A stretch of DNA of 54,165 nt, taken from the IMG/VR virus record IMGVR_UViG_3300045988_087855; one strand, given 5' to 3'. Of this stretch, positions 2,780 through 52,752 are shown piece after piece; position 1 is the stretch's first letter, and the number at the start of each line of letters is the position of its first letter. A program made the translations under genes and the position numbers. This DNA is from a virus. The notes beneath the pieces were generated by a model, which worked only from the letters and a program-made list of their open reading frames with translations, searched no databases and was not told the origin of the DNA.

Positions 2780-4759
2780 ATGAGAATCATTTTCAACACC
2801 ATCACCATGAAGAACTTCAAGGGAGTTCTCGGTGAGAGAAAGATAGAGTTCAACAACACGCTCACCCAGATCATGGGAGCGAACCACGCAGGCAAGACCA
2901 CAATCGTGGATGCGGTGCAGTGGGTACTCTTCGACAAGAACAGCGAGGGGGCATCGGTATTCGGCATCGACCCGAAGGACGAGAACGGAAACATCATCCA
3001 CAACTTGGATAACAGCGTGACGCTCGAACTGACGGCAGACGGAACCAGCCACACCATCGAGAAGGTCAGAACCGAGACCTGGCAAAAGCCGAAGGGCAAA
3101 GAAGAGAAGGAGCTGACAGGACATACGAACAAGTACTTCATCGACGGCAACAAGCAGACGCAGAAGGATTACAAGAACTTCGTGGATAGTTTGATTAAGG
3201 AGGACTTATTCAAGGTGCTGACGATTCCTTCATACTTCCCGACATTGCCAGCAGACAACCAGCGAAAGCTCCTCACGAAGATGGTCGGCATCACCACGGA
3301 CGAGGACATCGCAGGAGACAACAAGGACTTCACGGAACTCCTCCATGAGATGGGAGGCGAGGACATCGCCAAGTTCAGAGAGCAGCTCCGATACAAGATA
3401 TCCCAGCTCAAGCAAGAGATAGCGGACATACCGAGCCGCATCAACGAGAACACGGAAGAGCTGGAGGCACTCAATGCCAGCAAGCCGAACTTCGACTTGA
3501 CCCGAGAGCGAATCAAGCAAATCGAGATAGGCATCGAGAACATCGACAAGGAGCTGGCTGACCTCAGCAAGACCGTGGACGATGAGTTCAACGAGCGAAC
3601 CAAGGAGCGCACGGAGATAAATAAGCTGAAACAGCAAATGCAATCCATCGCCCAGAGCTACCAAGACAAGAACACCACGCTGGAGCGAGAGCACAAGAAG
3701 AGAATCACCGATGCCCAGTACGCTGTCGATTCCACACAGAGAGCCATCAAGAACGCCAAGACGAACATAGAGAACAGCCAGGCGCAACTCAACAAGATAG
3801 CCATCGACACAAATGACTTCCAAAGACGATGGACAGAGCTCGACCAAACGACCTTCTCATTCGACAACAAGCTGGAGTATTGCCCGACCTGCAAGCAGAG
3901 ACTCCCACAGGAGGACATCGACAAGATGCGTAAGGAGTTGAACGGCAACTTCAACCAGCATAAGAGCGAGCAATTCGACTTACTCGAGCAGGAGGCTGCG
4001 AGAATCAAGAAGCGCAAGGCTGACGCAGAGGCAACCATCAAGACAGACAAGGACAAGCTGACCAAGCTGGAGGAACAACTGAAGAAAGAACAGCAGGAAC
4101 TCCAGCAGGCGAACGAGGCTAAGGTGCAGCTCTCCTACCCAACCGAGAGCGAGGAATACAACCAGCTGCAGGCAGAGGTTCAGACAAGAACAGCGGCACT
4201 CGATGCAAGACAGGAAGCCAACACCACCGACACGCAGGAGAAGCAAGAGGCAACCCTTCGTCAGCGCAAGGCAGAGCAGAACCAGCTGAGAGACAACCTC
4301 AGAGACGAGCTCGCCAAGGAGCAGCAGATAGCCAACAAGCAGAAGCGCATCGCTGACCTCACGGAGAAGCAGAAGACGCTGAACCAGCAACTGACAGACC
4401 TGGAGAAGAAGGACTTCACGGCAGAGCAGTTCACGCTCGCCAAGATTAACGACTTGGAGACGAAGGTCAACCAGCTCTTCACAAACGTGCAGTTCAAGAT
4501 GTTCGAGACCTTCACCACCACCAGCGGAATCAAGCCAACCTGCGAGTGTACCATGCACGGAACCCCATACCGAGACCTATCGGCAAGCGAGAAGATAAAC
4601 GCAGGCATCGACATCATCAACGCCATGTGCCTCTACAACGACACCTACGCACCGATGTTCATCGACAACGCAGAGAGCATCACGGACATCCTGCCGACAC
4701 GCAGCCAGCAGATACTCCTCATCGTTTCGAGAGACAAGGAGCTAACAATAATTCAATAA
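2780..4759 (+). CDS. SbcC/Rad50-like SMC-family ATPase (recombination module)
   Basis: Walker A GANHAGKTT near the N-terminus. Very long K/E/Q-rich coiled coil with a central CPTC hook-like motif. C-terminal PMFIDNAES is a Walker B-like block. Confidence 0.75.
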   Translation: MRIIFNTITMKNFKGVLGERKIEFNNTLTQIMGANHAGKTTIVDAVQWVLFDKNSEGASVFGIDPKDENGNIIHNLDNSVTLELTADGTSHTIEKVRTETWQKPKGKEEKELTGHTNKYFIDGNKQTQKDYKNFVDSLIKEDLFKVLTIPSYFPTLPADNQRKLLTKMVGITTDEDIAGDNKDFTELLHEMGGEDIAKFREQLRYKISQLKQEIADIPSRINENTEELEALNASKPNFDLTRERIKQIEIGIENIDKELADLSKTVDDEFNERTKERTEINKLKQQMQSIAQSYQDKNTTLEREHKKRITDAQYAVDSTQRAIKNAKTNIENSQAQLNKIAIDTNDFQRRWTELDQTTFSFDNKLEYCPTCKQRLPQEDIDKMRKELNGNFNQHKSEQFDLLEQEAARIKKRKADAEATIKTDKDKLTKLEEQLKKEQQELQQANEAKVQLSYPTESEEYNQLQAEVQTRTAALDARQEANTTDTQEKQEATLRQRKAEQNQLRDNLRDELAKEQQIANKQKRIADLTEKQKTLNQQLTDLEKKDFTAEQFTLAKINDLETKVNQLFTNVQFKMFETFTTTSGIKPTCECTMHGTPYRDLSASEKINAGIDIINAMCLYNDTYAPMFIDNAESITDILPTRSQQILLIVSRDKELTIIQ

Positions 4760-4778: not shown

Positions 4779-5741
4779 ATGACACAAACATCACAGCAAG
4801 GAGGAACGCAGCAGCCTCAGACGCAGCTGACCTCACAGAACCAGACCGCACTCAAGAGAATGCAGGAAGAGACAACGCAGCAGATACTCGACAAGGTGAA
4901 CTGCTGGCAAGAGACAGGAGAGCTAATTCTGCCAAAGGACTACAAGGTCGGGAACGCAATCAAGCTCGCATGGCTTTACTTGCAGACCGTGGAAGACCGA
5001 AGCCACAGAAAGGCAATCGACGTATGCACCAAGGACAGCATCTGCAACGCCCTGCTCGACATGGTACTCCATGGAGAATACCCGAAGAAACATTGCTACT
5101 TCATCGTTTACGCAGACCGCCTGGAGTGGAACGAGCGATACCTTGGCAAGTACATGAGAGCCAAGCGAGACACCGAGATAGAGGCAGTGTACCCACAAGT
5201 GGTGTACCAGGGCGACGAGTTCGTCTACACTATCGACGAGCTGGGACAATACCAACTTGTGAAACACGTTCCGAACCTCGACAACCTCGATATCACCAAG
5301 ATTAAGGCAGCATACGCCATCGTGGTCAACAAGGACAAGACACGCCACATGGAGATTATGACGCTCGACCAGATCAAGAAGTCATGGATGCAGGGAGCCG
5401 CCAAGGGAACCAGCGGTGCGCACACCAACTTCACCGACCAGATGTGCAAGAAGACCGTCATGGCGAGAGCCTGCAAGATTGCACTCGACAGCCAGGCAGA
5501 CTTCTCTGAAGACGAGGATGACAACCGCAGAGACGAGGCAACCGCAGAACGAGACGCAGCCCAGCAAAGACAGGTAGCCGAGGCGGAAGCCGTGGAGGTT
5601 CACGATGAGGAAGCACCGAAGGGCATCGAGGCGAAGACAAACTACATCGACATGAACGTCAGTAACCAGCCAGAGGCAGAGGCAATACCAGCAGGATCTG
5701 GTGAGCAGCCAGCCGCAAGCGGAAGGGCATGCCCAATCTAA
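4779..5741 (+). CDS. recT: RecT-family single-strand annealing protein
   Basis: RecT-like blocks (YFIVY...LEWNERYLG, TNFTDQMCKKTVMARACK) followed by an acidic C-terminal tail. ATG at 4779 is preferred over GTG at 4773. Confidence 0.7.
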   Translation: MTQTSQQGGTQQPQTQLTSQNQTALKRMQEETTQQILDKVNCWQETGELILPKDYKVGNAIKLAWLYLQTVEDRSHRKAIDVCTKDSICNALLDMVLHGEYPKKHCYFIVYADRLEWNERYLGKYMRAKRDTEIEAVYPQVVYQGDEFVYTIDELGQYQLVKHVPNLDNLDITKIKAAYAIVVNKDKTRHMEIMTLDQIKKSWMQGAAKGTSGAHTNFTDQMCKKTVMARACKIALDSQADFSEDEDDNRRDEATAERDAAQQRQVAEAEAVEVHDEEAPKGIEAKTNYIDMNVSNQPEAEAIPAGSGEQPAASGRACPI

Positions 5742-6504: not shown

Positions 6505-7098
6505 ATGGAAAAGGAACAGATTATCAAAATCGCAGTCCCAGCAGGCAAGAAAGCCGAATGGGTGGATGGCTTTTTGAAACTCGTGGACAACGAGGAAGCC
6601 AAGGAGAAGAAACCAGTCACAGAACGAGTAAAGACCTTCGATGATGCCTGCAAGGAGCTGGGCATCGACGCAGAGGCAATCCAGCAGCAATGGCAGGACG
6701 CAGGAATCACCATGCTGGACGAAGTGGCATACCAGAAGCTCCGCATCATCACCGCAGCACTCAACGAGGGATGGGAGCCAGAGTTCAAGGAGGACGAGTA
6801 CAGATACTACCCTTACTGCATTCTTTACACCAAGGCGGAAATCGAGCAGAAGGATGATGAGTGGAAGGACGAGTACAACCTACAGCTGGGGCTTGGTGGC
6901 GGCTCCTCGTCCTACGGTGCGTCTTGCGGTCTCGCTTCTGCGACCTCGCGCCACGCCTGGTCGCCTGCGTCTGCGCCCCTCTCGGCTCGGCTTGCACACA
7001 AGACAGAAGAGCTGGCAATCTACAGCGGAAAGCAGTTCACGGAGTTATGGGCTAACTACTACACAGGAAAGGAGGTTCAGTCATGGAGAAATTCATAG
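6505..7098 (+). CDS. remote DGR target protein (contains VR2), function unknown
   Basis: 197-aa ORF. Residues LGGGSSSYGASCGLASATSRHAWSPASAPLSARL are encoded by a 112-nt copy of the DGR template repeat in which nearly all differences fall at TR adenines. Confidence 0.8.
   Translation: MEKEQIIKIAVPAGKKAEWVDGFLKLVDNEEAKEKKPVTERVKTFDDACKELGIDAEAIQQQWQDAGITMLDEVAYQKLRIITAALNEGWEPEFKEDEYRYYPYCILYTKAEIEQKDDEWKDEYNLQLGLGGGSSSYGASCGLASATSRHAWSPASAPLSARLAHKTEELAIYSGKQFTELWANYYTGKEVQSWRNS
6882..6993 (+). repeat. DGR variable repeat VR2 (remote)
   Basis: Gap-free hand alignment to TR 42464-42575. There are 22 differences at TR adenines and one non-A mismatch near the 5' end. The 3' end CTCGGCTCGGCTT is identical to VR1. 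Confidence 0.85.
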
Positions 7099-39823: not shown

Positions 39824-40924
39824 ATGGCAAACAAAATTAAGGGAGCGTTCACGGTGCGCTTCATCAGAACAGGCGACCAAATCTACGTCGAAAAGACCAT
39901 CGTGAAATTTGACAAGAACGGCACGGAAAGCGGAGGCTCGCTCTTCCAGGCAATCGATCCGACAAACGGAGGTCTGTCCGTTGATTGGAAGACAAGCATC
40001 TACGAGCAGCCAGCACTCAAGATAGGAATCAAGAGCGCAGTCGGCAACCCAGTGACGATAACCGACATCAAGTGGACATACCGAGGGACGCAGCTTGCAT
40101 TCAACGCAAGTCCTGCCACAACAGGAAACTACGCAGGCTGGAACCTATCCACTGACGGAAAGTTTGCAAAGAAGGAGACAGACGGATTCTGCTACCTCCG
40201 AGTGATTGACAACATCGCCAGCACCACCATCGTCTCCAACCAGATCATCGGCTACGAGGTCAGCTACATCAGCAACAACGTGAGAGACACCATAGCAGGA
40301 ACAGAAGATATCCTCATCCAGCAGGCAGGAGCGGACAGCTACTCAATCAACATCACCACGGCTTGCAGCACGCTGAACGCAACAACCACAAGCACCACCC
40401 TCACGGCAACCTACCTCTACGGAGTTAAGCCGATTTCAGACTCCGAGTTTGCCGCAAATTGGAAGCTGGAGTGGTACAAGGATTTCGTCCTCATAGACGG
40501 ACAGAACGGAAAGACGCTGAAAGTGACGAGGGATGATGTGGATGGCAGCTCAGTATTCAGCGTTAAGCTCCTGCACAAGGAAGGAGACACCTGGGCAGTG
40601 AAGGCTGTGGACGCACAGAGAGTGACTGACGATGCCGACGAGTGGACGATTGACGCAGAACCCGATGGAGCAAACCCAGATGCGATATCAAAGACCAGCA
40701 ACGCCAAGTTTGTACTGAAGCTGAAACAGAACGGCACAGCATACACAGGCAGCACCACCTGGACGTGGGACGTTTACAACGCACTCAACGCAAAGACCTA
40801 CAGCGGAACAGGAGCGAACGTAACGCTTACAGCGGAAATGGCGAAATGCACGCCAGACGCAAACAACACCGACAAGAGTTATTTTTCAGACGTGGCTGTC
40901 GAGGTTTCGGCAGCGTTATCATAA
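39824..40924 (+). CDS. tail fibre-associated structural protein (putative)
   Basis: 366 aa, S/T/N-rich and beta-type in composition. Its N-terminus KGAFTVRF resembles that of the 44730 fibre (KGAFTCRW). Confidence 0.5.
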   Translation: MANKIKGAFTVRFIRTGDQIYVEKTIVKFDKNGTESGGSLFQAIDPTNGGLSVDWKTSIYEQPALKIGIKSAVGNPVTITDIKWTYRGTQLAFNASPATTGNYAGWNLSTDGKFAKKETDGFCYLRVIDNIASTTIVSNQIIGYEVSYISNNVRDTIAGTEDILIQQAGADSYSINITTACSTLNATTTSTTLTATYLYGVKPISDSEFAANWKLEWYKDFVLIDGQNGKTLKVTRDDVDGSSVFSVKLLHKEGDTWAVKAVDAQRVTDDADEWTIDAEPDGANPDAISKTSNAKFVLKLKQNGTAYTGSTTWTWDVYNALNAKTYSGTGANVTLTAEMAKCTPDANNTDKSYFSDVAVEVSAALS

Positions 40925-40939
40925 AGAAGGAGACAGAAA

Positions 40940-42310
40940 ATGAGTTATCAAAAAATTACACAGGCGACAATCGCCACGACACTGAGCAATTCAGATTACA
41001 TCTTCGTGATGGCAGGGGGAACGCTTAAGCGCATCACACTCGACAACCTCAGAGCCATGATGGAGGAGAACCAGCAGCAGTTCCTGGACGAGAACGCATT
41101 CTACATCGAGGAGAACACCGCAGCAAGCAAGGGCTCTGCATACTGCGAGACAGGAGGCAGCAGCCTCATGCGACAGATTTGGCTCTCGAAGATTTGCGCC
41201 ATATTGATGACGCAGGACGGACACTTCACGAAACTCAACCCAGCCGACCACCGATACACTGCGGACGGAGACCAAGTGGTGAAGAACGGAGCCGTGGTGG
41301 ACGCATACAAGAACGCAGACTGGTTCGGAATGCTTGAAGGCGGTTATTGGAACTACCTGCAAGAGGTAACCATCAGCGGAGTGAAGCATATCCGACACCA
41401 CATATCGCTCACGCCACTGCCAGGTGGCTGGTTTACGCAGAACATACCAGCAGGCATGTTCAAATGCGTGATTCAGAACGGACAGATGCGAAGCATACCA
41501 TTTGTGGTACCAAGCGGAGGCAGCAACATCAACCAATTCTTCAACTACGCACAAGCACGAAGCAAGAACCATGGACTTGCAGGCGAGCCATTCCGCAACT
41601 TCCTCCTTCAGTACATGATGGGCAAGTACGGATACAGAGACATTCAAAACTTGGCGGCATCCGATGGTACAAAGATTTTCGGCTGCGGTTTGGACGGAAC
41701 AGAGAAGAGCGCATCTTCAACATTGGGTGACGGATTCGCAAGACAGAGAAACATCAAGACAGGAGCCTGCCTCGCTCTTGGATACAGCGACGGAAAGGTG
41801 GTGGTCAAGGACGCAGACAACTACGCCTGCCACAGCGTGAACGTGGGAGTATGGGAAAACCCATATGGGCAATATTGGGAAATGGACGGACACCTATGCA
41901 GCGTAGGTACCGACGTTTACCAATGGGACGGCAACTTCTTGCCTACAGGAACACCGACAGCGGACAGCTTTGCTGCGGTCAAGCACACCAAGATGACAAG
42001 ACTCGCAGCCGAAGGTTCAAGCGATGCCGACATCACCCTTATCACCACCAAGGGAGCGCAGCACATGAGCTACGTGCCTACCAAGCAGCATACAGGCATC
42101 ACCTACGGAGACCACTACTGGTACAATGCAAGTGGACAGCTGTGGTTTGGTGGCGGCTACTCGTCCTACGGTGCGATTTGCGGTCTCGCTTCTGCGTACT
42201 CGAGCAGCGCCTGGTCGTGTGCGTTTGCGTACGTCTCGGCTCGGCTTGATTTTCATGGTGACCTCACGGAAGTGACATCAGCCGAACTGAAAAGACTCCT
42301 TGCAAGTTAA
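40940..42310 (+). CDS. DGR target protein: tail receptor-binding protein with C-terminal variable region (VR1)
   Basis: 456 aa. C-terminal ...GQLWFGGGYSSYGAICGLASAYSSSAWSCAFAYVSARLDF is encoded by VR1. The gene lies in the tail fibre block immediately upstream of the TR and RT. Confidence 0.85.
   Translation: MSYQKITQATIATTLSNSDYIFVMAGGTLKRITLDNLRAMMEENQQQFLDENAFYIEENTAASKGSAYCETGGSSLMRQIWLSKICAILMTQDGHFTKLNPADHRYTADGDQVVKNGAVVDAYKNADWFGMLEGGYWNYLQEVTISGVKHIRHHISLTPLPGGWFTQNIPAGMFKCVIQNGQMRSIPFVVPSGGSNINQFFNYAQARSKNHGLAGEPFRNFLLQYMMGKYGYRDIQNLAASDGTKIFGCGLDGTEKSASSTLGDGFARQRNIKTGACLALGYSDGKVVVKDADNYACHSVNVGVWENPYGQYWEMDGHLCSVGTDVYQWDGNFLPTGTPTADSFAAVKHTKMTRLAAEGSSDADITLITTKGAQHMSYVPTKQHTGITYGDHYWYNASGQLWFGGGYSSYGAICGLASAYSSSAWSCAFAYVSARLDFHGDLTEVTSAELKRLLAS
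42134..42247 (+). repeat. DGR variable repeat VR1
   Basis: 114-nt gap-free alignment to TR 42462-42575. All 18 differences fall at TR adenines. Confidence 0.9.
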
Positions 42311-42461
42311 GACAAGGAACAAAACGAGAGAACAAACAAAAAAAAACAAACAAGAAAAGGTAACTTCAAAGGGGACGTGGGGGATTTCCCCCACCCGCCA
42401 ATGATGCCCCAGAATAAAGAAACCCCTCGCCCAAGCTCGTGGCGAGGTAGGCAAAGGAAAA

Positions 42462-42575
42462 GGACAGCTGTGGATTGGTGGCGGCAACTCGAACAACGGT
42501 GCGAATTGCGGTCTCGCTTATGCGAACTCGAACAACGCCTGGTCGAATGCGAATGCGAACATCTCGGCTCGAATT
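42462..42575 (+). repeat. DGR template repeat (TR)
   Basis: A non-coding copy of VR1 and VR2 rich in AAC/AAT codons (reads GGGNSNNGANCGLAYANSNNAWSNANANISARI in the VR frame). It lies 277 nt upstream of the RT gene. Confidence 0.9.
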
Positions 42576-42852
42576 ACTTCTACGTTTTCGGAGACGGAAA
42601 CGAAAAACAAATAAGGACATGAGTACTGCGTCATGGGAAAGTGTCCGCCTTTTCTGAGCCTCGGCAGCTGGTGCATAAGTACAGCCAGTGATGAGCCGAA
42701 ACAAATCGAACTTGCGCAGGCAACGCCCAGCGACCTGCCCGTGGTGTTAGTAAATCCGAACCGAGGATGGTCGGAAGTTGAAAGCTCTGCACAGAGAGAA
42801 GCAAGCCCAACGAGAACAGATACGAGCAACAACTTGATAAAGACGAAAGACA
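42576..42852 (+). ncRNA. DGR spacer region between TR and RT (probable structured part of the DGR RNA)
   Basis: No convincing CDS. Several local inverted repeats: CGTTTTC-GGAGAC-GGAAACG at 42583-42602, GGACATGA...TCATG...TGTCC at about 42606-42637, and CCGA...TCGG at about 42756-42774. Confidence 0.4.
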
Positions 42853-44265
42853 ATGCCGAAAAGACAAGGATACATATATGATGACATGTGGCAATGGGAG
42901 ACCTTGAAGGAATCCGACAGGGTATCGACCAGACGCAAGAAGAACTACGGAGTCAAGAAGCACAGGAAGCAATGGCTCAAAGACCTCGTGGAAGTCCAGG
43001 GCATCATCCATGACAGGAAGATGCGCACGGACGAATACAAGCACATGACGCTGAAGAACGGAAAGAAGGAGCGAGACATCAGCAAGCTCAACTTCCACCC
43101 GAACCACATCGAGCACCAAAGCCTGGTCTTAGTAAGCCACGACAGAATAGAGCGCACATTAATCTCGCACACTTATGCGTCAAGGATTGGCTACGGACAG
43201 ATAGCGGCTGCGCTTCAAGTCAAAAGATGGCTGCGAGAGCAAGGGAACGGATGCCTATGGTACGCACAGGGCGACATTTGCCATTATTACGCCAACATCC
43301 TGCACCAACTGCTCAGAAGGAACATGGAGCACCTATTCAAGGACAAGGAGTTCATCGACGCATACATGGAGCCGTTCGAGAGGTTCGCCCCAGATGGAAA
43401 GGGCATACCGCTGGGCATAAGACCCAGCCAGGACAGCGGCAACATTTCGCTGATGACATTCGACAGGTTCATGAAGGAGGAGGCGAAGGCGCACCTTTAT
43501 ATCCGATACCTCGATGATTTCGTCATATTCGGAAAGACGAAGGGAGAGGTGAAATGGAAGATGAAGAGAGCGATAGCATTCTTGAAGGATCTGGGATTCG
43601 AGGCACACGAGCCAAAGATTCGCCCGATAAGCGAGGGCTTGGATTTCCTCGGTTTCGTTTCCTACGAGGGAGGTAACATGTTTTGGAGGAAAAGCGACAA
43701 GGTGAGCTGGCTCAAGAGAAGAGCGAAGGTCACGAACAAGCGAAGACTCCGTGAGATAGACGCAGCAGCATGGGGCATGATAAAATGGGGAAACAGACAT
43801 TGCAAAAGACTTTATAAGATGGAAACAGGAATCAACTTACAAGACCTCGGCATCAAGATGCCAGAGAAGAAGGACAAGAACGGAAAGCGAATCATCGACT
43901 CTCCAAAGATTACGACGGCACTCATCCTCAACAAGGAGATAGAGGTCATCGATTGGGTGAAGGACGTGCAGACGAGCTACGGGGCAGGACGATACGCAGT
44001 GGAGATTGTCTTCTACGGAAGCAAGCAGAAACTCATCGTGAACAGCCCATCGATGAAGCAGCTCATCGACGCTTTCGACACCAACCACGTGACGAGCTTC
44101 AAGACTGTGGTCATTGACAAGGGAGGCTCGCACTTCGAGTTCAGCCAGGTCAAGATTCTCACAATAGATGGCAGACCTGTCGCCAAGCAGAACGACGGCA
44201 AGCTGATATACACCGACAACAACGAGGTCGTAGACCTCACCATGTTTAACAACCAAACAAAGTAG
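42853..44265 (+). CDS. DGR reverse transcriptase with a C-terminal extension of about 130 aa
   Basis: The RT motifs are IPLGIRPSQDSGNISL (a DGR-type [LI]GxxxSQ) and YIRYLDDFVIFG (YxDD). At 470 aa it is longer than typical DGR RTs. Confidence 0.9.
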   Translation: MPKRQGYIYDDMWQWETLKESDRVSTRRKKNYGVKKHRKQWLKDLVEVQGIIHDRKMRTDEYKHMTLKNGKKERDISKLNFHPNHIEHQSLVLVSHDRIERTLISHTYASRIGYGQIAAALQVKRWLREQGNGCLWYAQGDICHYYANILHQLLRRNMEHLFKDKEFIDAYMEPFERFAPDGKGIPLGIRPSQDSGNISLMTFDRFMKEEAKAHLYIRYLDDFVIFGKTKGEVKWKMKRAIAFLKDLGFEAHEPKIRPISEGLDFLGFVSYEGGNMFWRKSDKVSWLKRRAKVTNKRRLREIDAAAWGMIKWGNRHCKRLYKMETGINLQDLGIKMPEKKDKNGKRIIDSPKITTALILNKEIEVIDWVKDVQTSYGAGRYAVEIVFYGSKQKLIVNSPSMKQLIDAFDTNHVTSFKTVVIDKGGSHFEFSQVKILTIDGRPVAKQNDGKLIYTDNNEVVDLTMFNNQTK

Positions 44266-44276
44266 GAGGCAGAAAA

Positions 44277-44714
44277 ATGAAACAGCAGTACGGAAACATC
44301 AGAAGAACGTTCATGGAGCAGAAGCCAGAGGTGTACGACCGAAAGACACGCATCGCCTACATGGACTTCACAGCGGACACCCAGGAGAAGACCGACAACG
44401 CCAGCCAGGACACCGACAAGGCTAAGGGCAAGGAAGAGAAGACCACCATCGAGGGATTCAGCGGCTTTGTCATTCAGACCGACGGCATCATGGACTACGC
44501 CCACATCAAGAGCCAGCTCGTGGAGGCGGCATACCCACAGAAGGAAGAGCACGCCCTGGCATTCAATACCATCGACGCATTGCTGAAGAAGGTGGACGGA
44601 GTGGAACTGACCGAGGAAGAGAGCCAAGACCTCGCCAACTACAAGGACTTCTCGGAATACCGAGCATTGTGCGCCAACTGCGCCCACGCCATCATCGACA
44701 ACTTATTCACTTAA
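44277..44714 (+). CDS. hypothetical protein
   Basis: 145-aa acidic ORF between the RT and the tail fibre gene. Confidence 0.55.
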   Translation: MKQQYGNIRRTFMEQKPEVYDRKTRIAYMDFTADTQEKTDNASQDTDKAKGKEEKTTIEGFSGFVIQTDGIMDYAHIKSQLVEAAYPQKEEHALAFNTIDALLKKVDGVELTEEESQDLANYKDFSEYRALCANCAHAIIDNLFT

Positions 44715-44729
44715 AACAAGAGACCCACC

Positions 44730-47606
44730 ATGCAGAAGAAACGAATATTCAAGGGAGCGTTCACCTGCAGGTGGGCTCCTTCGGACGGAGCGGACGGCAA
44801 GGATGGAGACCCAGGCAAGGACGGAACAGGAATCAAGTCGGCTGACGTGGTCTTTGTCCTTTCGGCAAGCAACACCAGCGAGCCATCGGACACCGCAGGA
44901 TGGGTAACCACATTCACCCAGCTCGCAATGAAGGAGAACACCTACGTATGGAGCTGCACCAAGATTGTCCTCACGGACGGAACGAGCAAGTACACAGGCA
45001 AGCAATGCCTCGGTGCGAGCAAGGACTTCATAACCATCACCGAGCAATATGCCGTGGGCAGCAGCCCAACCACTGCGCCAACGAGCGGATGGGGAACCAC
45101 CTACACGCCAACCAAGGAGCTATGGCTGTGGACACGCAACAGAATGGAATGGAAGAACGGAACAGTCACATACACCACACCTTTGTGCGTTAGCTACTTT
45201 GGTAAAGACGGAGCGGACGGCAAGGACGGAGACCCAGGAGACGATGGCAACGGCATCAGCTCGCAGACATCGTACTTCATCGCAACCGACAAGAAGAGCG
45301 TGGCATCATACAGCTCGGTGAGCGGATGGAGCACCACATTTCCAACGCCAAGCGACCAAAAGCCGTACGTTTGGAAATGCGTGAGAACCATCTACACCAA
45401 GAGCGGTACCACCTACTCCACACCAGAGCTCGTCACAACATACCACAGCGGAGATAATGGCAACATCCTGGAGAACGCCAGCTTCACTGACGCAGACAAC
45501 ATGGAAGCGTGGAACGTCAAGAGCCAATACCAGCCACTCAGCGGAAAGACTGCACCGCAGGATCTGGGTAGCATTGACACCAGCAACAAGAAGGACGGAC
45601 GCAACTCATACCACGACACCTGCAAGGCGACAGGAGTCACCATCACCTGCAAGGAGATGCTCCGTCAGAAGGTACACCACCCAGCAGGAGGCATTCAAAA
45701 GCTGGCAGCAGGGCAATGGTACACGCTGAGTTTTTGGGCGAAGGGAAGAACAAAGCCTATTGTCATAAACGAGACGAGCAGCAACTACGGATTCGCAACC
45801 AAGGAACTCTACCTCATTGCAGGCAGGACATACACCATAAGGGTAATCGGCAAATGCGACAGCACTGCCGTAGTCAACGGAAAGGAACTGCGCACATACA
45901 TCTACGCAACCGATTGGAGCGAAGGGAACTCATGCGCAACCAAGAGCACATCGGTAACAGCAATGAGCATGACCTTCACCCCACAGAAGACAGGAGCCTA
46001 CCGCATATCGAGCTACCAATACGACAACACCGAGCCAAGGACTGGCAAGGTGACCGTCCAGCAGTACGAGATTACCGACCAGGTGGACTTGGTCACCTAC
46101 ATCTACCCGACAGCAGTGGACACAAGCACCAAGATGATTGTGGACGGAATCGAGGTAACAACGCCAAGCGACCTCGGCTACTCATGGAAGCTGACGGACG
46201 AGTGGACTCGACACAGCGTGACGTTCAAGACAAAGCAGAACCTCACCACAGAGGAACAGAACTGCCTGTTCAGATTAATGCCAGCCATTAACGAGGAAGG
46301 CTACAGAGAGGCGTGGATTTGCATGCCGAAGCTGGAGAGCGGAATGTTCGCAACAGGATTCATCGACGGCATCGATGACCTCCGAGGTATTCCTGGACTC
46401 ATAGAGAGAACCAGCGAGTGGAGCGCAGAAACGGAATACCACAACGACGAAAGCCTGTCGGGAGGAATCCGATACCTCGATATCGTGACGGTTACCGACA
46501 ATACCACAGGCAGCTTCACTATGTACCAGTGCAGGGTTACCCACACCTCCACCACAGCCAACGCACCGAGCGGAGGAGACAGCATCGAATGGCTCAAGCT
46601 GAACCAGATGCGACCAATTTACACACCTCTCATCGTGGCAAAGAATGCTGTCCTGCGATTTGCACAGACCAACCGCATCCTGATCACGAATAGCCAAGAC
46701 AAGGTGCAAGGATGCTTTGGAGGAGTCGAAGACGAGACAAACGGCTACCCCTTATGGATTGGAGGGGTTACTGCAGCAGCAGCCAAGTTCAGAGTGAAGT
46801 ACGGAGGACAACTCGAAGCAAGCGAAGCCAGCATCACGGGTACGATAAACGCAACAAATGGAAAGATAGCAGGATTCACCATAAGTGGAACCTCACTCAC
46901 TAACACGCCATGGACGAACGATGCTACTATTATTTTCCGAAACGATAATAAAAAATGTTTTGCAGGAATCGGTGGAAACGTTTTACCTGCTTCGACAGGA
47001 CTCAGAGCCGTGGCAAGATTCGAGAACGAAGACAAGACAAACCAATGGGGGCTCGACAAGAACATCGCTATGATTTTGTCCGCAAAGAACGGAACGTTCA
47101 ACTTTGCATTCACAGGCAGAGGAAATGGCATTTTAAATGGAGCTATGGCAGGTTACGCAATGGAAACGAAAGAAGCGAACAAAGAAAATACCTGCTTCAT
47201 TTTAGAGCCTACAAATGCACTTTCATTTCATGTGAAGGTTTCCCAAAAAAATGCGTCCATAGGATTGCCGACACTTTCGTGGATTTGCTTATTTCTTGGA
47301 ATTTCCCAAGGCACAGAATTTGCAATTACAATAGACATTTTAATAACGAGCACAGCCACAAGCGGAAATTGGAATGGTTCATTTATATACGGCAGAAACA
47401 GCAAAGTTAATGGAATGGACACAAAAGACTACCCATCAGCGAATTGGACTCAAGAGAAAAAAAACAATTATTATCATGATGGAAAAGTGTACAACTATTA
47501 TTTTACTGAAGGATTGAATAGAATCGTCCTGGTTTATAAGAATGGAAGTTATCTGGCTTATGCCGTAAAGACATCCGAATACAAGTATACCATCACAAAC
47601 ATTTAA
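44730..47606 (+). CDS. tail fibre protein with collagen-like GxY motifs and a duplicated N-terminal module
   Basis: 958 aa. DGADGKDGDPGKDGTGI and DGADGKDGDPGDDGNGI are each followed by a ...GW.TTF...YVW.C... module. The 3' end (about 46900-47606) is visibly AT-richer. Confidence 0.75.
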   Translation: MQKKRIFKGAFTCRWAPSDGADGKDGDPGKDGTGIKSADVVFVLSASNTSEPSDTAGWVTTFTQLAMKENTYVWSCTKIVLTDGTSKYTGKQCLGASKDFITITEQYAVGSSPTTAPTSGWGTTYTPTKELWLWTRNRMEWKNGTVTYTTPLCVSYFGKDGADGKDGDPGDDGNGISSQTSYFIATDKKSVASYSSVSGWSTTFPTPSDQKPYVWKCVRTIYTKSGTTYSTPELVTTYHSGDNGNILENASFTDADNMEAWNVKSQYQPLSGKTAPQDLGSIDTSNKKDGRNSYHDTCKATGVTITCKEMLRQKVHHPAGGIQKLAAGQWYTLSFWAKGRTKPIVINETSSNYGFATKELYLIAGRTYTIRVIGKCDSTAVVNGKELRTYIYATDWSEGNSCATKSTSVTAMSMTFTPQKTGAYRISSYQYDNTEPRTGKVTVQQYEITDQVDLVTYIYPTAVDTSTKMIVDGIEVTTPSDLGYSWKLTDEWTRHSVTFKTKQNLTTEEQNCLFRLMPAINEEGYREAWICMPKLESGMFATGFIDGIDDLRGIPGLIERTSEWSAETEYHNDESLSGGIRYLDIVTVTDNTTGSFTMYQCRVTHTSTTANAPSGGDSIEWLKLNQMRPIYTPLIVAKNAVLRFAQTNRILITNSQDKVQGCFGGVEDETNGYPLWIGGVTAAAAKFRVKYGGQLEASEASITGTINATNGKIAGFTISGTSLTNTPWTNDATIIFRNDNKKCFAGIGGNVLPASTGLRAVARFENEDKTNQWGLDKNIAMILSAKNGTFNFAFTGRGNGILNGAMAGYAMETKEANKENTCFILEPTNALSFHVKVSQKNASIGLPTLSWICLFLGISQGTEFAITIDILITSTATSGNWNGSFIYGRNSKVNGMDTKDYPSANWTQEKKNNYYHDGKVYNYYFTEGLNRIVLVYKNGSYLAYAVKTSEYKYTITNI
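44784..44815 (+). repeat. 32-bp direct repeat (collagen-motif DNA), copy 1
   Basis: GACGGAGCGGACGGCAAGGATGGAGACCCAGG matches 45208-45239 at 31 of 32 positions. Confidence 0.8.
45208..45239 (+). repeat. 32-bp direct repeat (collagen-motif DNA), copy 2
   Basis: GACGGAGCGGACGGCAAGGACGGAGACCCAGG, in frame, 424 bp downstream of copy 1. Confidence 0.8.
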
Positions 47607-50221: not shown

Positions 50222-50734
50222 ATGATGCAGAAAGAATTTGAAGACAGAGCAAAGTTCAAGGTTAGCGCAGAGTGCTACCACATGCTAATCGAGCCAGAGT
50301 ACAACGCAAGCAACCTCGACAAGGACGAGTGGGTGAAGGAATGGAAGAAGCAAGGAGGCATCCAGAAAGCATACGATTTTGAGAGACAGAACCGTGTGGT
50401 CTTGACGAAGGAGAACAAACACCAGCTGGAGCAGTTCAACGTGATTTGTGGAGAACGAGACCTCTACAAGAAGAAGGCAGAGAACCTACAGAAAAGCGCA
50501 AGCCTAAACCTCAAGGAACTCCAAGAGACAGAGGAAGAGCTGTCAGACCTCAGAGAGAGATACGAGACCTTGGCAGAGGCACTCATTAGGAAGGCAGCAT
50601 ACTACAACGACGAGGAACTGATGGACACCGCAAAGACAATCCTCGGAGAGAAGAGATACATAAGCTTCAAGCTCCATAACAACCTGGAGCTGACGGAGGA
50701 AGACAAGGAACTCATTCTTAGCAACATAAAATAA
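50222..50734 (+). CDS. hypothetical coiled-coil protein (accessory cassette 1)
   Basis: 170-aa ORF. Confidence 0.55.
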   Translation: MMQKEFEDRAKFKVSAECYHMLIEPEYNASNLDKDEWVKEWKKQGGIQKAYDFERQNRVVLTKENKHQLEQFNVICGERDLYKKKAENLQKSASLNLKELQETEEELSDLRERYETLAEALIRKAAYYNDEELMDTAKTILGEKRYISFKLHNNLELTEEDKELILSNIK

Positions 50735-50779
50735 GAAGGAAACAGGGGAGCCAACCACTCCCCTACAAACACCAAGGGC

Positions 50780-51010
50780 ATGAAACAGATTGAAGCAAGA
50801 ACGTACATAACAGACCAGATCCACGAAAAGGAATGGGAATACACATACGGAAGACTAAAGGAAGAGAAGGTGGACTTCACCTTCATCAAAATCAAGACAG
50901 GCAAGTGCAACAAGAAGCAGGGATTGTTCACTTACAAGCAAGCCGTAGAGCTGGCAAGAATGAGAACCAAGGACGGAAGATACAAGAACTTCGAGTTCTT
51001 GATAGGATAA
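50780..51010 (+). CDS. hypothetical small protein (accessory cassette 1)
   Basis: 76-aa ORF. Confidence 0.45.
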   Translation: MKQIEARTYITDQIHEKEWEYTYGRLKEEKVDFTFIKIKTGKCNKKQGLFTYKQAVELARMRTKDGRYKNFEFLIG

Positions 51011-51056
51011 GAAGGCAACGGCTGGGCTAACCACCCAGCCACAAAGACAAACAGAC

Positions 51057-52715: not shown

Positions 52716-52752
52716 AGGGAGAATCCACCACAGGGTTCTCCCTTACTTTTTG
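52716..52752. terminator. bidirectional hairpin between the convergent RHH-like gene and the integrase gene
   Basis: AGGGAGAA (52716-52723) pairs with TTCTCCCT (52736-52743). A T-run follows on the plus strand. Confidence 0.55.

Follow-up and report, generated by a model that had tools for sequence, protein, structure and literature searches.

The stretch of viral DNA analysed here, IMG/VR virus record IMGVR_UViG_3300045988_087855 (54,165 nucleotides; hereafter the window), very probably carries a complete diversity-generating retroelement (DGR) of a temperate Prevotella phage with two target genes, a reading to which we assign a probability of about 0.93. The core of the element lies on the plus strand between positions 40,940 and 44,265, where a tail-module gene with a first variable repeat (VR1) near its 3' end is followed by the template repeat (TR), a structured non-coding spacer and a gene for a DGR-type reverse transcriptase (RT). 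A second variable repeat (VR2) is located 35 kb from the TR within an early-region gene. The element follows the standard DGR design and is of a well-known kind, which is confirmed here in detail. It departs from the Bordetella paradigm by lacking Avd, by its long RT and by its second, distal target, and each of these departures falls within the variation known for DGRs. DGRs are common and well described in temperate phages of gut Bacteroidota, and Prevotella is a dominant gut genus of which few phages have been characterised.

The comparison of the repeats provides the most direct evidence. The original prediction, which was made from the letters of the DNA, described a gapless alignment of TR (42462-42575) and VR1 (42134-42247) over 114 nt with 18 differences, each of them at an adenine of the TR, and a scripted comparison reproduced this exactly (18/18). 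The TR contains 27 A in its 114 nt, and the hypergeometric chance that 18 out of 18 differences fall on A is 1.2e-14. Scanning the whole window with the TR adenines as wildcards revealed VR2 at 6880-6993 on the plus strand, with true homology from 6882 onwards (6882-6993). VR2 differs from the TR by 22 mismatches at A and by a single non-A mismatch, a T to G change opposite TR position 42471. Sorted by TR base, non-A mismatches thus amount to 0/18 for VR1 and 1/23 for VR2, which is far from the comparable frequency at other bases that would speak against a DGR. Pooling both repeats, 40 of 41 differences are found on one base of one copy.

Read in the VR frame, the TR translates into GQLWIGGGNSNNGANCGLAYANSNNAWSNANANISARI. 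Its adenines occupy position 1 of a codon in 13 cases, position 2 in 12 and position 3 in 2, and its codons include ten AAY (Y, pyrimidine), three ATY and one TAT. As previously proposed, no substitution of A by any other base can create a stop codon in this sequence, and the theoretical diversity derived from the TR reaches ~1.5e14 peptides. VR1 and VR2 are both in frame and close to the 3' ends of their open reading frames (ORFs), and one TR serves two functionally different genes within one phage genome. Adenine-directed variation in VR1 extends over ~42136-42233 and is followed by a constant 3' end, TCTCGGCTCGGCTT (42234-42247), which is the putative initiation of mutagenic homing (IMH) sequence. 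The TR ends in CTCGGCTCGAATT, corresponding to IMH*, and VR2 carries the same 3' CGGCTT as VR1. At the 16 positions where both VRs of the window differ from the TR, the substituted base is identical in nine, compared to about five expected. This excess of common bases may reflect structural selection on a common VR scaffold or a joint history of the two repeats.

The behaviour of these repeats in natural populations agrees with their assignment as donor and recipients. For this population scan, the exact TR-core pattern with N at every A was run against three collections. It matched 24 stretches in viral contigs as well as a Prevotella sp. 885 genome, and a pattern anchored in the TR flanks matched 12 metagenome contigs. 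The copies were sorted by their flanks into TR, VR1 and VR2 classes. The related TR loci of the viral, genome and metagenome contigs were nearly all identical to the window TR, and the TR polymorphism present in the lineage is confined to A, except for one G-to-T change at position 84. All VR1 copies (11/11) and all VR2 copies (11/11) were unique. They vary at the TR-A positions, where all three alternative bases are used, and contain about five non-A changes in total. All three repeats, TR, VR1 and VR2, are present in the Prevotella sp. 885 genome as well, in line with a Prevotella host. For the VR2 protein, the 120 closest homologues (92-96% identity) combine 15 scaffolds with 119 distinct VR peptides, and the 14 hypervariable columns coincide exactly with the TR codons for N, I and Y. 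In these 120 homologues, mean entropy is 1.03 bits inside the VR versus 0.02 outside. In contrast to the nearly all-unique VR2 peptides, one RT cluster at 98% identity comprises 391 member sequences. The heterogeneity that the original prediction expected for VR1 in populations is therefore present, and it is present for both targets.

The repeats also provide a rationale for the direction of information transfer. CGGCTT in both VRs and CGAATT in the TR had been interpreted as a fixed difference between IMH and IMH*, based on the argument that two independent VRs carry the same bases. Both motifs are confirmed in the window and the conclusion stands on the population data, but the argument itself was weak, because VR1 and VR2 of the window also agree at 7 of the 14 further positions at which neither matches the TR. 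Across the population, repeat positions 111-112 are GC in 22 out of 22 VRs and AA in the TRs, and every other A position varies. Since the change from CGA to CGG is synonymous, the fixed G does not result from selection on the protein. Fixed 3' bases that differ from the TR and are common to both VRs are furthermore found in LoVEphage, in BT-TP2 and in distant lineages of the RT clade. It is thus well supported by these alignments that the fixed difference between IMH and IMH* would provide the directionality from TR to VR.

The RT is encoded by ORF 42853-44265 on the plus strand, comprises 470 aa and matches Pfam RVT_1, PHROG 1423 and PHROG 19665. Both DGR signatures reported in the original prediction are present in this ORF, i.e. 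LGIRPSQ at 43411-43431 and YLDD at 43507-43518. The best PDB sequence match is the Bordetella RT (bRT) with E = 1e-16, and the best group II maturase follows with 7e-7. An AlphaFold (AF2) model built from 106 homologues reached a pLDDT of 89 and superimposes on bRT (8ub7_A) with a TMt of 0.90 and a root mean square deviation of 2.4 Å, and group II RTs reach a TMt of about 0.75. Residues S192, D221 and D222 are invariant in the 106 homologues, and LGxxxSQ and YLDD are invariant within the clade. All 106 aligned homologues are about 470 aa long and contain an extra β-rich C-terminal domain (residues ~340-465, ~150 aa; 43870-44265 of the window, PHROG 19665), for which neither a Pfam nor a PDB sequence match was found. 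Roughly 20% of DGR RTs have a C-terminal extension, which can reach ~150 aa (PMC5758913). The conserved domain of the window RT may take over the role of the missing Avd.

The cassette surrounding the RT is conserved as well. Relatives of the RT were found at 41 loci with 46-99% RT identity, and the arrangement of the window recurs at 36 of 40 loci in the RT clade, with the VR located 245-333 nt upstream of the TR and the TR 215-460 nt upstream of the RT; in the window, the latter distance is 278 nt. The TR-RT spacer is 277 nt long and highly conserved, and it is considered non-coding because 1-nt indels are present among close relatives. Within it, a structured RNA (42576-42807, plus strand), equivalent to the spacer (Sp) RNA of Bordetella, is supported by covariation. 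RNAalifold on 18 lineages produced 32 consensus pairs, compensatory changes are present in 16 of these, and 97.4% of the alignment cells are paired versus 30-47% in slid controls, a value that 0 of 500 shuffles reached. The predicted helices are 42615-20/42641-46, 42626-28/42634-36, 42661-65/42695-99, 42667-72/42684-89, 42716-19/42735-38, 42741-47/42784-90 and 42755-56/42774-75.

A further duplex closes the TR. Its 5' strand, GGAAAAGG (42456-42463), pairs with 42648-42655 in the spacer, where the 3' strand of the duplex, CCTTTTCT, runs into TGAGCC, the candidate primer strand (both within 42648-42660). In 17 lineages, 89.7% of the cells of this duplex are paired versus 37-48% in slid controls, and each of the 8 pairs has compensatory changes; the covariation score reaches 0.98 versus at most 0.22, and none of 500 shuffles matched it. 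The sequences of the two strands differ in almost every lineage, with complementarity kept. The adjoining (U/C)GAGCC of the spacer is complementary to GGCUCG at the TR 3' end, and both motifs are conserved across the RT clade. In the window, TGAGCC (42655-42660) would pair with the candidate template strand GGCTCG (42566-42571), including one G-U pair. GGCTCG follows the last variable A (42561) and precedes the fixed AA (42572-42573). It thus lies at the boundary of mutagenesis, where a template:primer duplex would be expected, and the TGAGCC/GGCTCG pairing is the candidate priming site. The Bordetella DGR ribonucleoprotein has a parallel arrangement, in which Sp pairs with the TR 3' end for cis-priming and a segment upstream of the TR pairs with one downstream of it (bioRxiv 10.1101/2023.10.23.563531). 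Two hairpins are also predicted upstream of the TR (42377-42446), with stems GTGGGGG/CCCCCAC (42377-42394) and CTCGCC/GGCGAG (42426-42446). Across relatives with diverged flanks, their stems are invariant and their loops variable, and they are probably either the 5' part of the DGR RNA or the terminator of the target gene. No Rfam family was found in 42250-42950, even at E = 1.

Combining these elements, the following sequence of events can be proposed. An RNA of ~430-480 nt would be transcribed, consisting of the sequence that immediately precedes the TR, the TR itself and the structured spacer from 42576 to ~42807. The TR would be closed into a loop by pairing of 8 nt at its 5' edge with 42648-42655 of the spacer, and the adjoining TGAGCC would be brought together with GGCTCG at the TR 3' end. 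The RT would begin cDNA synthesis at this pairing by cis-priming and would copy the TR with fidelity apart from its adenines, opposite which it could insert any base. The cDNA would then replace the homologous stretch in the 3' end of the tail gene (VR1) and in the early-region gene 35 kb away (VR2). CGGCTT, as IMH, would mark the recipients and CGAATT, as IMH*, the donor, which would send information from TR to VR. The AAY, ATY and TAT codons could in this way yield up to ~1e14 peptide variants without stop codons.

The first target gene (40940-42310, plus strand) encodes a 456-aa tail-module protein that matches PHROG 5302 ('tail protein') with E = 1.3e-12 and is flanked by further tail and tail-fibre genes. 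VR1 corresponds to residues 399-436, which places it near the C-terminal end of the protein and within the tail-fibre block, as originally described. A comparison of this protein with PDB sequences returned no match. The PHROG match and the position in the tail module are consistent with the earlier designation as a receptor-binding gene that would serve tropism switching.

The second target gene (6505-7098, plus strand) encodes a 197-aa early-region protein of PHROG 11581, in which VR2 corresponds to residues 126-163. This second target is not a structural protein and was underplayed in the original prediction. Its neighbours encode RecT, an MBL-fold hydrolase, an SbcC-like ATPase, a replication initiator and a DNA methyltransferase, which places the distal VR2 close to genes of a counter-defence type, such as the methyltransferase. 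The proteins carrying VR1 and VR2 are alike only inside the VR. The PHROG 11581-type family is large: it forms 1408 clusters at 50% identity, and a profile search detected more than 7400 proteins. Its members, among them the homologues P0241-P0510, are mostly 160-250 aa long. Conserved motifs of the family include ITERIKTFEDAC, LNEGWxPxF and RYYPWF. Scans against Pfam, a profile comparison with PDB sequences, Foldseek against PDB and BFVD, and PHROG scans that covered longer family members retrieved only uncharacterised viral homologues of the VR2 protein. A Tad2-like match of one family member (E = 0.001) was below the cut-off and is not relied on. In a separate contig, IMGVR_UViG_3300013382_000106 (locus L098, position 11076), a VR-like fragment fits the pattern of the clade in a different context. 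In the VR frame, a stop codon follows soon after the matched core, and the fragment may be a degenerate remnant of a target.

In some relatives, the TR itself has changed. Between 9 and 17 of its adenines are replaced by other bases, with the TR flanks and the AATT end retained. The loci concerned are L090:12473-12586 and L102:~5187-5300 (contig IMGVR_UViG_3300045988_187778), L101:~4029-4142 and 3700-3813, L095, and L021:5654-5767. In contig 3300045988_187778, the TR differs from the canonical sequence at 14 A positions and by G84T. The distal VR2 of this contig contains all of the altered TR bases and differs from its TR at nine of the remaining A positions only. VR2 has therefore been rewritten from the altered TR, which is still in use as a template. 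Contig 3300045988_175279 shows the same pattern for VR1, and the single-base TR variants of other contigs are all at A. Chimeric assembly was considered as a source of the eroded TRs and ruled out, because the distal VR of the same contig carries the bases of the eroded TR. These sequences indicate that the TR itself undergoes adenine-specific change, for which occasional homing of the cDNA into the TR is the simplest explanation. The TR of the window is intact. No report of TR erosion was found in the literature searched, which is not proof of novelty.

Several points weigh against a complete and functional element in the window. The alignments demonstrate activity for the lineage and not for this individual genome copy. 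No Avd or other accessory protein, including those of the HRDC type, was detected among the ~25 small ORFs of the window with Pfam, run for Avd on 20 small ORFs, and NCBIfam, run on a further set, and ORF 44277-44714 just downstream of the RT, which is acidic by eye and unlike Avd, has no family match. The fold of the single spacer sequence is no more stable than that of shuffled sequences (z = 0.13), and the structure of the RNA hence rests on covariation only. No promoter was identified, in a promoter and terminator scan that used the sigma-70 consensus and is unsuited to Bacteroidota. No significant hairpin or cruciform follows VR1 (z = -0.4) or VR2 (z = +0.8) in the window. One relative has a stronger hairpin after its VR (z = -3.3), and only 34% of known DGRs possess a GC-rich inverted repeat after the IMH (PMC5758913). 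For the targets, a C-type lectin fold is unsupported, neither of them has a Pfam or PDB sequence match, and the model of the VR2 protein shows no PDB fold match and low confidence inside the VR.

An alternative is that the cassette of this genome is a recently inactivated relic in which the VR differences record past activity. Ongoing activity cannot be read from one sequence, no Avd was found, and eroded TRs exist in some relatives. Against this, both the RT ORF, with its catalytic and DGR-specific residues, and the RNA elements are intact. The TR has lost none of its 27 A and matches the most frequent TR in the population exactly, and the VRs of sister genomes are all unique. A relic is accordingly improbable. 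Even more remote is the idea that the RT derives from a group II intron, a retron or a defence system and that the repeats are unrelated to it. The weak NCBIfam matches that could be cited in its favour are far below their cut-offs (group II, 54.9 vs 300 bits; Drt3a, 31.9 vs 200; Drt2, 31.4 vs 390; retron St85, 19.4 vs 235), bRT is the best match by both sequence and fold, and the RT is preceded by the TR at a distance of 278 nt, in an arrangement shared by 36/40 clade members. The RT does not group with any of these non-DGR clades, a placement that had been named as incompatible with the original prediction.

Duplication followed by ordinary divergence or gene conversion, without reverse transcription, can likewise be given hardly any credence as the origin of the three repeats. 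Nothing beyond the existence of the repeats points to it, and it is contradicted by the concentration of 40 out of 41 differences on one base of one copy and by the directional asymmetry between an invariant TR and hypervariable VRs in the population. A reading that accepts the DGR as real deserves more weight. The tail target might not set the host range but mediate other binding, for example to mucus or other surfaces, and the second target might be the more important one. The function of the 456-aa protein is deduced only from a PHROG tail-protein match and from the location of its gene within the tail module. For Hankyphage, adherence to mucus has been suggested (PMC6199706), and conservation of the second target extends over three divergent phage lineages. 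On the other hand, the gene is located within the tail-fibre block beside tail-fibre-like genes, and the Bordetella precedent is tropism switching. We regard this reading as possible, but rather unlikely. A complete DGR with a tail target and a second, early-region target is the explanation preferred here.

Among the closest known systems is the DGR of Bordetella phage BPP-1, in which the elements are arranged as mtd-avd-TR-brt. Both systems have in common the A-specific transfer from TR to VR into the 3' end of a tail gene, the RT fold (TMt 0.90), the 3' asymmetry of IMH and IMH*, the pairing across the TR flanks and the pairing of a spacer segment with the TR 3' end. Different from BPP-1, no Avd was found in the window, the RT is 470 aa instead of 328 aa long due to its extra C-terminal domain, the spacer is ~230-277 nt instead of 140 nt, no clear GC-rich inverted repeat follows the VR and a second distal target is present. 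RT identity between the two is only ~23%.

A megablast search of window positions 40000-46000 against the phage collection gave no match, and the nearest annotated phages by tblastn are LoVEphage and Hankyphage, with 26-30% RT identity. LoVEphage (Phocaeicola phage PV4-TP1), also a temperate phage of Bacteroidota, has the same pair of targets, i.e. the tail protein gp23 and the 195-aa gp58, which is a homologue of the VR2 protein. Mismatches in both of its targets are restricted to A and fixed 3' differences are in common. Its TR-RT spacer (L002:3600-3880) has the motifs GTGTTAGTAGG, GGTGTTAGTAGG, CGAAAGCTC, GCAAG and CCGAGCC in common with that of the window, and the spacer RNA family may therefore extend to LoVEphage-like phages. 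LoVEphage differs from the window phage by an RT identity of ~30% without nucleotide similarity, by the annotation of the region that matches the window RT, including its C-terminal part, as three separate ORFs, and by its 71-kb genome and its hosts, Bacteroides and Phocaeicola.

Hankyphage (Bacteroides phage p00) likewise has the order VR, TR, spacer and a long RT (434 aa), in a recognised DGR that is annotated without Avd. The Hankyphage-like BT-TP2 carries a second VR in a homologue of the 197-aa protein of the window. These phages deviate by a tail-side target of ~2200 aa, an RT identity of 26% and their nature as transposable phages, and their spacers lack three of the four motifs of the window clade that were searched. 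A second VR in a homologue of the 197-aa protein was also found in lineages with ~50% RT identity. For gut prophages, a second VR at a distal site has already been published, and phage DGRs commonly have non-adjacent targets within 50 kb (PMC5758913). Other two-target phage DGRs have a different second target, the tentaclins (PMC10743442).

Beyond the DGR, a few features of the window are worth mentioning. An exact 45-nt direct repeat is present at its ends (1-45 and 54121-54165) and includes, on the minus strand, a motif resembling a tRNA T-arm, GGGGGTTCGAATCCCCC. The gene of a tyrosine integrase (52743-53993, minus strand) adjoins the right end, and ARAGORN found no complete tRNA. The end repeat looks like attL/attR of a prophage inserted in a tRNA gene or, alternatively, like the overlap of a circular contig. 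Downstream of the RT, a gene for a 958-aa tail-fibre-like protein contains a 57-nt direct repeat (44784-44840 and 45207-45263, 81% identical) that, read by eye, encodes a repeated DGADGKDGDPG collagen-like stretch. Two 50-nt intergenic repeats (50726-50775 and 51002-51051, 72% identical) with the hairpins GGGGAG...CTCCCC and GGCTGGG...CCCAGCC may be terminators or regulatory sites.

The value of this element lies in the dissection of an Avd-less DGR clade, in a covariation-backed RNA that mirrors the cis-priming of Bordetella, and in the nucleotides of the proposed priming and stop duplexes, which can be tested. The pair of a tail protein and a small non-structural protein as targets is kept across phages with only ~30% RT identity, which suggests an important role for the second target. 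PHROG 11581 proteins (~190 aa), encoded among early, recombination and counter-defence genes, are DGR targets in at least three divergent lineages of Bacteroidota phages. What we infer for the role of this second target is that it could bind, for example, host defence or competitor-phage proteins inside the cell. Tentatively, and with considerable reservation, this can be joined with the changes observed in some TRs into a picture in which the second target would be an intracellular hypervariable binder and the TR would not be fully protected, such that homing of mutagenised cDNA would erode it. If the TR is indeed reached by homing, a ratchet would erode the diversifying capacity of the element. 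If the second target is indeed an intracellular binder, diversification by DGRs would serve an intracellular arms race as well as adsorption.

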